Shown: positions 18,130 to 21,702 of the stretch, piece after piece | Layout of the letters: each line of letters opens with the position of its first letter | How positions within the stretch are numbered: the stretch's first letter is position 1 | NCBI GenBank assembly: GCA_900768045.1 | Contig: CAAGBL010000095.1 | Coordinates: 7,936-71,935, forward strand | Origin: an uncultured Alistipes sp. | GTDB taxonomy: Bacteria; Bacteroidota; Bacteroidia; Bacteroidales; Rikenellaceae | Length of the DNA: 64,000 nucleotides | Direction: 5' to 3' | Notes under the pieces: model-generated | Databases searched by the model: none | Seen by the model: the letters and a program-made list of their open reading frames with translations, nothing else | What the model was told of the DNA's origin: nothing | Program-made: the position numbers and the translations under genes

Positions 18130-19503
18130 ATGGCAAAGAACAAGAAGCACAATAAGCGTATCACCTCTGGTGGTAGTGTTGGGCGTACCCCTACGCAAAC
18201 AATCGTACTTCAGCCCACCCGCCGAGGTGGACTCGATGTGTCCGAGTATATGACAGCAATACGCAAGGCGGAGTTAATCGACTACCCCCAGCGTAAGAAG
18301 CTCATCGACCTCTACAAAGATGTCAAAACAGACTCCCACCTATTTGCGGTACTTCGCAAGCAGAAGGCAGCTATACTTTCAACCCCGATTCAGTTCCTGC
18401 GTGATGGTGAGGTTGATGAGCAGATGCAGGAGCATATTACATCGCCTTGGTTCAACCACTTCATTGAGGACCTTATTGACCACGAGTGGGAAGGTGTCGG
18501 AGGCTCGCTGTTCCAATTCTACAAAGACGAGAAGGGCTGGGTTAAGTACGACCTTATTCCGAGGGAACATGTGGACCCAATCAACCGCACGATCCTCCGT
18601 AACCCGACAGACCTCCGAGGCGAGAGCTGGGAGGAGTTCTCCGACTTGTTGTATGTCGGCGACCCCAGACAAATCGGCGACCTTGCGGTCTGCGCCTTCT
18701 GGGTAATCCTCAAACGCAACAATGTGTCTGATTGGGCCGAGCTCGCCGAGATATTCGGGCGACCTATCCGAGAGGGTACATACGATGCGTGGGACGAGAA
18801 GGCTCGAGAAAAATTGATTGAGGATATCTACAATATGGGCGGTGCTGGTATCATTATCCACCCTGACGGAACGAAAATAAACCTACTCCAAACAGGCAAT
18901 GTGTCCGGAGCTGGGGATATGTATAGCGGACTTGCCACATATTGCAACAACGAGATGAGTAAGGCGGTAAATGGTAATACCTTGACCACCGAGGCGGGCG
19001 ACAAAGGCACGCAAGCCCTCGGCACTGTACAACAGGAGGGCGAGGTCGATATCACCTTCTTCATTAAGCGACAGATCCTCGACATTCTCAACTATGAGGT
19101 GTGCGACATCTTTGCTGCTCTCGGCATCAACACCAAGGGTGGTAAATTCGCCTTTGTGCCACCAAAGAAGAAGGACCCTGCACAACAGGTTACTATCGTT
19201 TGCCGACTGAAAAATGAGGCAGGATTACCCATTGCCGATGACTACCTCTATGAGGAGTTCGGTATTCCGAAGCCCGATGACTACGACCAAATCAAGGAGC
19301 AAGCACAGGCAACAGCAGCAGCCATCAAAGAGGGCAAAAAAGAGGATAAAACAGAGGACCCTGACGCTGATGGAGACGAGAGTACCGAGCCCAAGAGCAA
19401 AAAAACAACCTCTAAGAAAGACGAAGACCACAAATTCATAGATCGTCTTCGCAGTTTTTTTGGAGGAGCCCCCGACAGCGCGGGGGCGGATTTAGATTGG
19501 TAG
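18130..19503 (+). CDS. Portal protein (Mu gp29/DUF935-like)
   Basis: DSHLFAVLRKQK, W..LAEIFGRP, CNNEMSKAVNGNTLTT, YLYEEFGIP motifs. Confidence 0.9.
   Translation: MAKNKKHNKRITSGGSVGRTPTQTIVLQPTRRGGLDVSEYMTAIRKAELIDYPQRKKLIDLYKDVKTDSHLFAVLRKQKAAILSTPIQFLRDGEVDEQMQEHITSPWFNHFIEDLIDHEWEGVGGSLFQFYKDEKGWVKYDLIPREHVDPINRTILRNPTDLRGESWEEFSDLLYVGDPRQIGDLAVCAFWVILKRNNVSDWAELAEIFGRPIREGTYDAWDEKAREKLIEDIYNMGGAGIIIHPDGTKINLLQTGNVSGAGDMYSGLATYCNNEMSKAVNGNTLTTEAGDKGTQALGTVQQEGEVDITFFIKRQILDILNYEVCDIFAALGINTKGGKFAFVPPKKKDPAQQVTIVCRLKNEAGLPIADDYLYEEFGIPKPDDYDQIKEQAQATAAAIKEGKKEDKTEDPDADGDESTEPKSKKTTSKKDEDHKFIDRLRSFFGGAPDSAGADLDW
19455..19487 (+). other. Predicted -1 frameshift signal joining portal to MuF
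   Basis: T_TTT_TTT (19455-19461), 6-nt spacer, hairpin GCCCCCG-ACAGCG-CGGGGGC (19468-19487); the -1 frame is open into MuF. Confidence 0.7.
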
Positions 19504-20909
19504 TCGATGAGTTGTACCGGGATGCTGCCGACAACGAGGGGGCTCGAAGTAGTTTCACCTTCGACTCCTCAATCATAGAGAAGGCTTTACGCAACATTCA
19601 GTCGAAGCGTATCAACACACGCACGACTATCGATGCGGGGCTATTCTCGGAGGTGCAGCGCATTGTAAGCAACGCTATTGATATCGGCTATAATGCTCCA
19701 GCTGGCGGTAGCAGCTTCGCCCAAGAACTGAAAAACAATGCCGAGGTGTGGTCAGCGTTCAAGGTTCACCGTATGGGCAGGGATATCGCTGCTCGTATGT
19801 TAGACGAAGATGGCAACCTCAAATCGTTTGAACAGTTCAAAGCCGACACAAAGGACATCGTGGATCATCAGGTAGGGCGTTGGCTACGCACCGAATTTGA
19901 TACCGCTGTAAAGCGTGCCCATCGTGCCGCCGAGATGCGTCAATTTATGGATGAGGCTGATGTGTTCCCGAATATCGAGTGGCTGCCATCGACAGCAGTA
20001 AACCCTCGTGAGTCGCACATGCCATTCTACCACCGCATCTGGCCTATTGATGATCCATTTTGGGAGAAGCACAAACCGGGCGATGAGTGGGGCTGTCAGT
20101 GTGATTGGAGAGCAACAGACGAGGAGCCTACCGACAACACAGGCATCGGTGAGGAGAGTATCAAGCCATCAGCGGGATTGGGTGGCAACCCTGCCAGAAC
20201 AGGGCAGATATTCTCCAACGACCACCCATATTTCCCAAGCGATTGCGACCACTGTGCATTCAAGAGTGTGCAACTACGACTGTTTACCAACAAGCAGAAA
20301 AACTGCTATCAGTGCGCCAACATCATCAAGGCAATCAAGAGCGCAAAGTTGGCTCCCGTTATTGAGGAGTATGAGCGTCTGCGAGCTGATGAGAACTACA
20401 CCGATGTCAAGATTGACCGCAAGAGTGGTGGCTTGAAGGCAACTCATATCGGGCACAATATCCATAGTGAGCCAAATGAAGAGCGATTCTTCGGAGGAAA
20501 GTACTCTTCCACCGATTTGGAGTTTGAATGCCAAGAACGACTATTTAAGATGGGACATAAGGCTATACTGTGCGATGAATCCAAGGAGTATCAAGGCAAG
20601 AAATTGGCGGCTCTTGATATGGAGTTAGACGGTGTTATGATTGATATTAAGTCTATCACAGGTAACGGTTGGTACTCTCACGCATTGAGAGTTAAAAACA
20701 ATCAATTGCGCCGATACAACAATCGTCCAGATAATCCAGTCCCAGCAAGCCGAGTATGCTTATATTTCCACGAAGCAGAGTTGTTTGATGATATCAAGAT
20801 GCGAAAATCCATTTACTACTTCAAACAACATTTGGAGGGGACCTGTTACATCAAGCATATTATTTGTGTTATCAACGGAAGAGACGGCATATTGGAATAT
20901 GATGTATAA
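19497..20909 (+). CDS. MuF minor head protein with C-terminal PD-(D/E)xK (CdiA-C-like) nuclease domain
   Basis: WLRTEFDTA, PRESH, PIDDPFW..H.PGDEWGCQC (MuF); CxxC..CxxC linker; E...LDMELDGVMIDIKS toxin-like tail; only a TTG start. Confidence 0.8.
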   Translation: MVVDELYRDAADNEGARSSFTFDSSIIEKALRNIQSKRINTRTTIDAGLFSEVQRIVSNAIDIGYNAPAGGSSFAQELKNNAEVWSAFKVHRMGRDIAARMLDEDGNLKSFEQFKADTKDIVDHQVGRWLRTEFDTAVKRAHRAAEMRQFMDEADVFPNIEWLPSTAVNPRESHMPFYHRIWPIDDPFWEKHKPGDEWGCQCDWRATDEEPTDNTGIGEESIKPSAGLGGNPARTGQIFSNDHPYFPSDCDHCAFKSVQLRLFTNKQKNCYQCANIIKAIKSAKLAPVIEEYERLRADENYTDVKIDRKSGGLKATHIGHNIHSEPNEERFFGGKYSSTDLEFECQERLFKMGHKAILCDESKEYQGKKLAALDMELDGVMIDIKSITGNGWYSHALRVKNNQLRRYNNRPDNPVPASRVCLYFHEAELFDDIKMRKSIYYFKQHLEGTCYIKHIICVINGRDGILEYDV

Positions 20910-20985
20910 AGACAATCCTCCGCCCGAAAGCGGAGGATTTTGAAGCCAGTTTCCACCTATTTGCATAGAGTTAACCGGTTAAACC
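20908..20985 (-). ncRNA. Putative ~75-nt structured small RNA convergent on the MuF-toxin gene
   Basis: Promoter GTTG-N20-TATATTTG (21021-20990); stem CCGGTT/AACTGG enclosing a CTAT-GCAA-ATAG GNRA hairpin; terminator at 20914-20939. Confidence 0.5.
20914..20939. terminator. Intrinsic terminator, probably bidirectional
   Basis: AATCCTCCGC-CCGAAA-GCGGAGGATT perfect 10-bp stem with T-rich tails on both strands. Confidence 0.75.
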
Positions 20986-20989
20986 AATG

Positions 20990-21021
20990 CAAATATAGCA
21001 CAAAACATTCCAAAATACAAC
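20990..21021 (-). promoter_or_regulatory. Bacteroidetes sigma-A-type promoter pointing back at the MuF 3' end
   Basis: -7 TATATTTG (consensus TAnnTTTG) and -33 GTTG with a 20-nt spacer. Confidence 0.65.
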
Positions 21022-21051
21022 ACTTTGGAAAGAATAATTTTACAACCCTCG

Positions 21052-21079
21052 TTTGAACGCTGTTTGAACGGCATTTGAA
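21052..21079. repeat. Phased TTTGAA array 3 (11-bp period)
   Basis: TTTGAA at 21052, 21063, 21074. Confidence 0.8.
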
Positions 21080-21090
21080 TAACACTCAAA

Positions 21091-21702
21091 ATGGCAGATA
21101 GAATTGAAAAAGACATACAGCGGTTTGTGCAGGGAGTTGAACAGCTTATCAGCCGCAGACTCCCCATCTATGCGGGCAAGACTGCCACGCAGCACTTCAA
21201 GGATAACTTCACGAAAGGTGGATTTGTCAATGGGGGGCTACAACCTTGGCTTCCCTCCAAGCGTCTATCATCAGGTGGGCAAGGGGCAGACTCAAAGTAT
21301 GGAACATTGCTTTCCTCACGCAAACACTTGTATAGTTCTATCAACTACACCCCCAGCACAGCCAAAGTCACCATCTTCAACGATGTGGTCTATGCTCAAA
21401 TTCACAATGAGGGTGGCACGATTGGCATAACGCCCAAAATGAGGGGCTATGCGTGGCATCGCTATTACGAACTAACAGGCAAGGGTAAAAGTGGCTCAAA
21501 CAGCCCGAAAACAGGCAAAGAAGGCAAGAATGCCGAGCCTGTGGTGGAATCAGCGGAGGCGAAGATGTGGAAAGGGCTTGCTTTGACTAAAAAGCAGTTT
21601 GTAACAATCCCCAAACGCCAATTTATGGGACAGAGTGCCGAACTTGACGACAAGATAGCCGCATACATTGAACGAGAAGTTCTCAAAATCTTAAACTCAT
21701 AA
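21091..21702 (+). CDS. Phage virion morphogenesis protein (Mu gpG-like)
   Basis: W.PSKR, YAQIHNEGG, IPKRQFMG motifs. Confidence 0.88.
   Translation: MADRIEKDIQRFVQGVEQLISRRLPIYAGKTATQHFKDNFTKGGFVNGGLQPWLPSKRLSSGGQGADSKYGTLLSSRKHLYSSINYTPSTAKVTIFNDVVYAQIHNEGGTIGITPKMRGYAWHRYYELTGKGKSGSNSPKTGKEGKNAEPVVESAEAKMWKGLALTKKQFVTIPKRQFMGQSAELDDKIAAYIEREVLKILNS

Follow-up and report, generated by a model that had tools for sequence, protein, structure and literature searches.

Predicted RNA immunity in the MuF polymorphic toxin cassettes of Bacteroidota prophages

The window analysed here, a stretch of 64,000 nucleotides (nt) from an uncultured Alistipes sp. (contig CAAGBL010000095.1), carries a Mu-like transposable Bacteroidota prophage, recognised with Pfam and PHROG by its DDE transposase, AAA gene, terminase region, Mu gp36, Mu portal, MuF and neck genes. 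The element in question is a predicted small RNA gene in the gap behind the MuF gene, which faces the toxin-encoding end of that gene from the minus strand. The MuF gene (19497..20909, plus strand) encodes a minor-head protein of 470 amino acids (aa) with a C-terminal toxin domain, matching PHROG 220 (minor head/DNA pilot; E 5e-22) and, over residues 112-203, the Pfam family Phage_Mu_F (E 3e-6), although with a score of 28.3 that is slightly below the cut-off of 29.6. As expected of a MuF polymorphic toxin, the N-terminal MuF domain is encoded among the head genes of a temperate phage, after the portal gene, and the C-terminal domain of the protein is variable, with many tail types sharing the MuF N-terminus and a swap seen in a sister phage. 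Prophages near-identical to that of the window are present at two of the loci compared here, L229 and L230 (both from Alistipes metagenome-assembled genomes), and the N-terminus of the window MuF is 43% identical to that of hankyphage p00.

The last 184 residues of the window MuF, referred to as the tail, had no match in Pfam, and a PDB sequence search with the tail returned no significant match, while a 50%-identity library holds 174 relatives of it. The AlphaFold2 model of the tail domain (20355..20906, plus strand) has a pLDDT of 96.9 and points to a PD-(D/E)xK domain resembling the CdiA-CT of Burkholderia pseudomallei 1026b (PDB 4G6V), which is its top structural match (Z 12.6, root-mean-square deviation 3.0, 130 aligned residues; next match 6.9) and also ranks first in Foldseek (E 1e-3). 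The predicted catalytic residues E342 (20520), D374 (20616), D383 (20643) and K400 (20694) are at least 90% conserved in 45 homologues and echo the active-site residues E187, D214, D223 and K242 of the 1026b toxin (PMC9086364) by order and spacing, not by superposition. In addition, PF18451 matches homologues of the tail, mostly under its cut-off. As the 1026b toxin cleaves the acceptor stem of tRNA-Ala (PMC9086364), the window tail is predicted from its model to be a tRNase of the same type. The two systems share the fold and the similarly spaced E, D, D and K, yet they are only 12% identical, and the window has neither the CdiA delivery part nor a gene for a CdiI-like protein.

The MuF stop at 20909 and the next gene at 21091 are separated by 181 nt, as a first-pass annotation of this DNA had stated, and its account of the minus strand largely agrees with the present analysis. 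The promoter GTTG-N20-TATATTTG is located as claimed, with the -33 element GTTG at 21018..21021, 20 nt upstream of the -7 box TATATTTG at 20990..20997 (both minus strand). The -7 box forms the breakpoint of a cassette described below and is common to three toxin types in related phages, and the promoter pattern is the common one of the host, with 471 matches in the genome versus 66 for a reversed control. Together with the terminator, this promoter predicts a small RNA of ~75-80 nt (20908..20986, minus strand), whose start would lie a few nt past the -7 box. The 44-nt string quoted earlier is found at 20985-20942 and folds as proposed, with a CCGGTT/AACTGG stem around a GCAA-capped hairpin (-11.1 kcal/mol). 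Within it, a bulged stem-loop of 33 nt (20946..20978, minus strand), comprising the outer CCGGTT/AACTGG pairing, an inner helix and the GCAA loop at 20964-20961, is the predicted functional body. An intrinsic terminator follows (20914..20939, minus strand), with a U-rich tail at 20913-20908 touching the toxin stop; the scanner gave it 11 pairs rather than the 10 claimed. The stem-loop stops 36 nt ahead of the toxin stop, and the stem-loop units of related loci with a separate terminator similarly end 34-38 nt before the stop, or 27 nt in L015. The terminated RNA shares ~2 nt with the toxin gene and thus barely overlaps it, as had been noted.

The window has no adjacent gene for a small immunity protein of the kind that accompanies MuF toxins. 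The earlier statement that the gap holds no credible immunity open reading frame (ORF) stands, as it contains only a 38-aa frame on the plus strand and a 68-aa ATG frame on the minus strand (20966-20760), but the latter had been missed. This frame is not conserved and has no Pfam match; from its start within the hairpin it continues through the terminator and for 150 nt into the toxin gene, antisense to it. Frames of at least 50 aa occur in 26 of 165 homologous slots, are similar only among close kin as judged by eye, and were read by eye as probable antisense read-through. The 12-bp palindrome beside the predicted start, also pointed out earlier, is present but is one of 19 in the window, only 6 of 166 homologous slots contain such a palindrome, and it was rejected as a chance feature. 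Rfam gave no family at threshold within the window, and an exact search of viral contigs with a 21-nt piece of the RNA gave 0 matches. By itself, the window hairpin only modestly exceeds chance (z -2.15, with 6 of 200 shuffles equally good); the evidence comes from homologues.

Comparison with the sister prophage L229 outlines a swappable cassette (20429..20989) made up of the catalytic part of the toxin and the body of the RNA gene. The two prophages differ by 5 mismatches over 19497-20428 (99.5% identity), carry different cassettes over 20429-20989 and are nearly identical again from 20990, where the -7 box ends, with 19 mismatches over 700 nt. The L229 tail is a CdiA-like domain 41% identical to that of the window and is paired with a different hairpin RNA, and in three more related phages the promoter is unchanged, but tail type and RNA are of a third kind. 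Since the promoter stays constant while toxin and RNA change, the promoter belongs to the backbone, and toxin and RNA are its cargo. The test proposed earlier, whether RNA and toxin domain are exchanged together, was run, and the L229 swap and the tracking of identities agree: across 60 loci, pairs with toxin domains at least 85% identical never have RNAs less than 70% identical, and no pair with toxin domains below 60% identity has RNAs above 80%.

To survey the slot behind MuF toxins more widely, two sets of loci were used. For the set of tail homologues, 135 of 154 ORF hits were kept (19 partial or broken ones being dropped) and deduplicated to 77 intact loci, while sampling by the MuF N-terminus, with the tail ignored, gave 285 loci, of which 218 were distinct, all with a complete MuF N-terminus, a stop and a 320-nt flank. 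The scans took the best 80 of 96, the best 80 of 577 and the best 80 of 275 hits, and the survey therefore leans to close relatives. A relaxed -7 box is found 61-234 nt past the stop in 77 of 77 tail-homologue loci, usually with TTG 19-20 nt upstream. Among the 218 distinct loci, 186 have an RNA-sized slot with no contained ORF of at least 50 aa, 21 have a slot with a minus-strand ORF of 60-87 aa, and 11 have no -7 box by the rule used; these 11 include all five tailless or truncated MuFs (three clearly tailless, two with broken frames), where the promoter is absent. A strict hairpin filter passed 47 of 191 loci and was judged too strict, and promoter-only counts were used instead. By these, a strict -7 box lies 40-145 nt past the stop in 184 of 191 tailed loci without a protein slot, compared with 4 of 134 positions after the stop of the next gene, and a full promoter is present in 167 of the 191 versus 13 of 1583 host ORFs, the window MuF being one of the 13.

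When tails are clustered at 50% identity, 63 clusters have RNA slots (2 of them mixed), 7 have protein slots and 4 are promoter-less. RNA slots accompany CdiA-like tails (122 of 123 in the main cluster, and smaller clusters with weak PF18451 matches), LPD3-like tails (41 of 42 and 6 of 6) and a PBECR3-like cluster (4 of 4); the nearest folds of the LPD3-like model are mostly BECR RNases, as weak matches with Z at most 5.0. Protein ORFs fill the slots behind papain-fold deamidase tails (14 of 14), HEXXH-type tails (4 of 4 and 1 of 1) and two other tail clusters lacking a Pfam match (1 of 2 and 1 of 1). The content of the slot depends on the type of tail: a protein with deamidase-, peptidase-like and other non-nuclease tails, a structured RNA with nearly all nuclease-type tails, and no promoter where the tail is gone. 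Behind the papain-type tail (by eye) of the cultured phage hankyphage p00, the convergent slot holds an annotated hypothetical ORF (L341:3923-4222, minus strand), which is a candidate immunity gene. Another tail, RelA/SpoT-like by eye, occurs at L338 together with a convergent 94-aa ORF.

The RNAs of these slots are diverse and mostly form bulged or internally looped hairpins (mean z -1.6, with 56 of 106 below -1.5), the shortest slot being 43 nt. In the clade nearest the window tail, the conserved unit is a bulged hairpin beside the toxin that often doubles as terminator, and the promoter-side part of the RNA is variable. The hairpin of this neighbouring clade has 93% pairing, with compensatory changes at 4 of 9 pairs, counted on a structure derived from the same sequences, and its compensatory score of 0.349 was reached in 1 of 500 shuffles. 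A covariance model check had been suggested and was run on this clade: model R1, made from 18 of its units, found three held-out clade members at 31-41 bits but not the window hairpin. A by-eye likeness of the 3' strand of the window RNA to the motif of the neighbouring clade is unsupported, since R1 does not detect it.

Five slots carry tRNA-derived sequence, four with a T-arm and one with a tRNA-Tyr-like gene. The T-arm slots (L272, L280, L296 and L314) belong to the PBECR3-like cluster, where all four members have RNAs of 90-96 nt matching the T-arm at 12-13 of 13 nt; the tRNA-Tyr(GTA)-like gene (L319:2776-2850, minus strand) lies behind a CdiA_C tail and is followed by further hairpins. 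An Rfam search of 20 homologous loci found only tRNA, in one of them. For LPD3-like tails, 11 of 46 slots have the geometry of an anticodon arm against 1.7 expected. At eight loci with LPD3-like tails (L178, L222, L228, L281, L295, L298, L308 and L291), the tails pair with 7-nt loops of the U-turn type, and some LPD3-like slot loops match the loop of the host tRNA-Leu(UAG) or resemble the arm of tRNA-His, which may point to the target of LPD3. For the RNA class of the window, tRNA mimicry was rejected at the level of sequence; acceptor-stem matches seen by eye were lost against shuffles.

Taken together, the element is real and widespread and, judging from sequence comparison, most likely an immunity gene, encoding an RNA, within a polymorphic toxin cassette. 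In the window itself, the minus-strand element is probably a small RNA immunity factor that would bind and block the predicted tRNA-cutting domain. As proteins occupy the slot behind non-nuclease tails and hairpin RNAs behind predicted RNA cutters, the RNA is likely the antidote of the toxin. The idea that an RNA replaces the immunity gene, already put forward in the first-pass annotation, gains good comparative support from the swap, the equivalence of the slots and the tailless MuFs lacking a promoter, but the GCAA loop and the exact sequence are not conserved among homologues. Mechanistically, a fixed backbone promoter faces the toxin gene, and everything from the beginning of the toxin domain to the -7 box moves as one cassette. 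With a promoter of the host housekeeping type that opposes the late operon, the slot RNA would be produced in the lysogen, where it would neutralise toxin that leaks, is newly made or comes in with a superinfecting phage. The toxin itself is predicted, from published MuF biology, to ride in the virion head as part of MuF and to be delivered at infection. In the likeliest chemistry, the bulged stem-loop would sit in the RNA-binding cleft and, being cleaved poorly, mimic the substrate in the manner of type III antitoxins; with other nuclease tails this analogue appears visibly tRNA-derived, whereas for the window toxin it would resemble the substrate in shape only.

Several observations weigh against this reading. 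R1 misses the window hairpin both in the 64 kb and in a 2.4-kb search, and the sole identical copy of the hairpin (L230) yields no covariation. The RNAs of the window and its class score 12.85 against host tRNA acceptors compared with 12.69 when shuffled, show no excess tRNA likeness in a 13-mer test, and have anticodon-arm geometry in 6 of 115 cases with 6.0 expected. Six tailed loci (L069, L118, L226, L271, L275 and L338) lack the promoter by the rule used, and the minus-strand ORFs of the surveyed slots are only putative immunity proteins; the strand of the Bxa and Apk2 immunity genes is not stated in the accessible text (PMC11699363, PMC10083569). In L153 and L240, the 5' hairpin is almost lost while the toxin is apparently intact, and 41 of 45 nt of the promoter-side unit of L249 recur in the RNA of L310, a locus with an unrelated tail (score 70, against a maximum of 25 in 5217 shuffled pairs). 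These loci can be read as a toxin-proximal unit plus an orphan, but low specificity would fit them too. The promoter-side units of L037 and L218 also share 19 of 19 nt, and the pairs with shared units have unrelated or distant toxins; the units shared by L249 and L310 and by L037 and L218 are candidate orphan immunity RNAs. Finally, co-transfer of RNA and toxin is expected from mere adjacency and the surveyed loci are kin, and adjacency alone could partly account for the tracking of RNA and toxin identities.

Adjacency also favours a different explanation, in which the promoter is a relic of a protein-immunity slot, nuclease tails need no antidote because they are made late or are inactive until processed, and the transcript is a promoter-terminator insulator. 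The weakness of the window hairpin when taken alone and the shortness of some slots (43 nt at minimum; L153) would be in line with this. However, the promoter is kept in nearly all tailed loci without a protein slot, across ~60 tail clusters, and is absent from the tailless or truncated MuFs; the RNA bodies have structure in addition to the terminator, one clade shows compensatory changes, and five slots are tRNA-derived. Moreover, an RNA terminated at the toxin stop has no means of disturbing transcription of the toxin gene, and a mere relic is unlikely.

Alternatively, the RNA could help the nuclease, as a cofactor, guide or packaged partner setting its target, or could act against anti-phage RNases of the host. 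RNA slots are found only with RNA-binding or nuclease-type tails and track these, and PBECR domains have been proposed to target mRNA or crRNA, not tRNA (PMC5512222). Yet, the RNA slot is positionally equal to the small-protein slot, a repeat-spacer layout is lacking, with the longest matches elsewhere in the prophage reaching only 10 and 12 nt, and the opposite-strand housekeeping promoter suits expression in the lysogen, making a helper role likewise unlikely. It could also be speculated that the RNA protects without tight binding, as a sacrificial substrate made in large amounts or, in slots with a complete tRNA, as a cleavage-resistant replacement of the target tRNA; the tRNA-Tyr-like gene in the L319 slot and the T-arm- and anticodon-arm-like slots at other loci would suit this, but the window RNA falls far below the length of a tRNA and does not resemble one, so that here such protection is improbable. 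Immunity by the 68-aa minus-strand frame or by type I-style antisense pairing with the end of the toxin mRNA is very improbable, for although the frame is open in L230 too and the same promoter drives proteins at other loci, the frame crosses the 11-bp terminator, lacks a Pfam match and has counterparts of at least 50 aa in a minority of slots, and the terminated RNA overlaps the toxin gene by only ~2 nt.

The preferred reading, an RNA antidote, invites comparison with known systems. ToxIN, CptIN and TenpIN are families of type III toxin-antitoxin systems, in which the RNA lies upstream of the toxin as a repeat array. Type III toxins are RNases, and the window toxin, whose fold and residues match a tRNase, is likewise accompanied by a predicted cis-encoded structured RNA that would bind it and that has, from sequence and homologues, its own promoter and terminator. 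The window RNA differs in being single, convergent and downstream, without tandem repeats or an Rfam match, and type III toxins are ToxN or HEPN proteins, whereas PD-(D/E)xK and BECR-like folds are found here, on the tail of a virion protein. A type I system does not fit, as the RNA has no substantial complementarity to the toxin mRNA and terminates at the stop codon. Phage-encoded tRNAs offset anticodon nucleases such as PARIS and are likewise phage RNAs countering a tRNase, and one surveyed slot holds a tRNA-like gene; such tRNAs oppose a host defence, however, while the slot RNA, in most cases a hairpin of 30-45 nt, is paired with a toxin of the phage itself. AbiF/AbiFr is a further type III system, in which AbiFr inhibits through a bulge (PMC12737573), and the window pair belongs to none of the ToxIN, CptIN, TenpIN or AbiF families. 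It is a MuF polymorphic toxin by layout that would act like a type III pair, outside the described type III families.

MuF belongs to the minor head proteins and is assumed to pass into the cell along with the DNA (PMC10083569), and in the MuF polymorphic toxins described so far (PMC5576092; Bxa, BAH and Bsi, PMC11699363; Apk2, Tis1 and Aph1, PMC10083569) MuF also follows the portal gene and has a variable tail that is swapped jointly with the piece downstream of it. Their described immunity factors are all proteins, whereas the window slot encodes a predicted RNA on the opposite strand with its own promoter. For the Bacteroides MuF toxins Bxa and Apk2, adjacent small proteins are established immunity factors (PMC11699363, PMC10083569), and AlphaFold3 places a small adjacent protein, a predicted immunity protein, on a MuF glutamine deamidase (PMC11699363). 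According to Jamet et al., a small ORF follows 89.4% of 191 muF toxin genes; the word Bacteroidetes is absent from the accessible text of that article (PMC5576092). No description of RNA immunity for MuF toxins was found in the open literature, which largely leaves out subscription journals and supplements. Neither MuF nor CdiA is named in the available part of a 2026 preprint dealing with non-coding elements, and the available text of PMC5512222, PMC12135933 and PMC10367356 contains nothing on the slot, that of PMC12135933, on hankyphage RNA-seq, being without slot-level data.

Beyond the window, a tentative generalisation, which we hold with somewhat less than even confidence, is that temperate phages of Bacteroidota share one backbone promoter and a programmable slot, filled by a protein antidote where the tail is not a nuclease and by an RNA antidote where it is an RNase. 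The RNAs would be substrate decoys, partly taken from pieces of tRNA (T-arm, anticodon arm or whole tRNA), diversified together with dozens of toxin types of at least two unrelated folds, and could accumulate as orphan units that protect against the toxins of rival phages. If true, the generalisation would bring RNA-based immunity and poly-immunity into a polymorphic toxin family. In the cited literature, polymorphic toxins have proteins as their immunity factors, and the RNA antitoxins known comprise a few intracellular type III families. The reading of the slot RNAs as antidotes, if it holds, would add PD-(D/E)xK and BECR-like folds, and toxins delivered by virions, to the range of RNA antitoxins and explain the apparent absence of immunity genes behind many MuF nuclease tails. 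It would also offer dozens of natural toxin-RNA pairs for studying how the specificity of RNA inhibitors evolves, in phages that are kin of hankyphage, itself widespread in the gut, and slot RNAs resembling tRNA arms could reveal the targets of uncharacterised domains such as LPD3.

Other arrangements of the slot were also observed. In seven non-Mu phages (L072, L083, L091, L092, L093, L138 and L141), two tandem RNA units lie 0-235 nt past the stop, each in a long stem behind one CdiA-like tail, with L082 as a single-unit relative, and these units may possibly form an RNA array. A search with the second unit returned 6 contigs, of which 5 were L072-type loci of the survey set, and no second nuclease gene was evident by eye in three L072-type loci. 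At L186, L187, L191, L192, L217 and L268, the MuF-toxin gene and RNA slot are followed by a gene whose beginning resembles that of the terminase-region gene in the window, which from sequence is the same slot in another gene order. The MuF-toxin genes of L118, L136, L149 and L169 are broken by stops or frameshifts, and those of L118, L136 and L149 keep the downstream promoter and hairpin.

Upstream in the window, the Mu-type portal gene (18130..19503, plus strand; Pfam Portal_Mu, E 9e-72) overlaps the start of MuF. A run of seven T (19455..19461, plus strand) followed by a GC-rich hairpin lies at this overlap (19455-19500) and, from its sequence, is a candidate portal-MuF frameshift site; at least six T in a row occur close to where MuF begins in 187 of 213 homologous loci, a tally made without a control. 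Run and hairpin would fit a programmed frameshift giving a portal-MuF-toxin fusion. Downstream, the next gene encodes a virion morphogenesis/neck protein (21091..21702, plus strand; Pfam Phage_tail_S, PHROG 26) and is not an immunity gene. It is preceded by a direct repeat of GTTTGAACG (21020-21090), which is present in related phages too.

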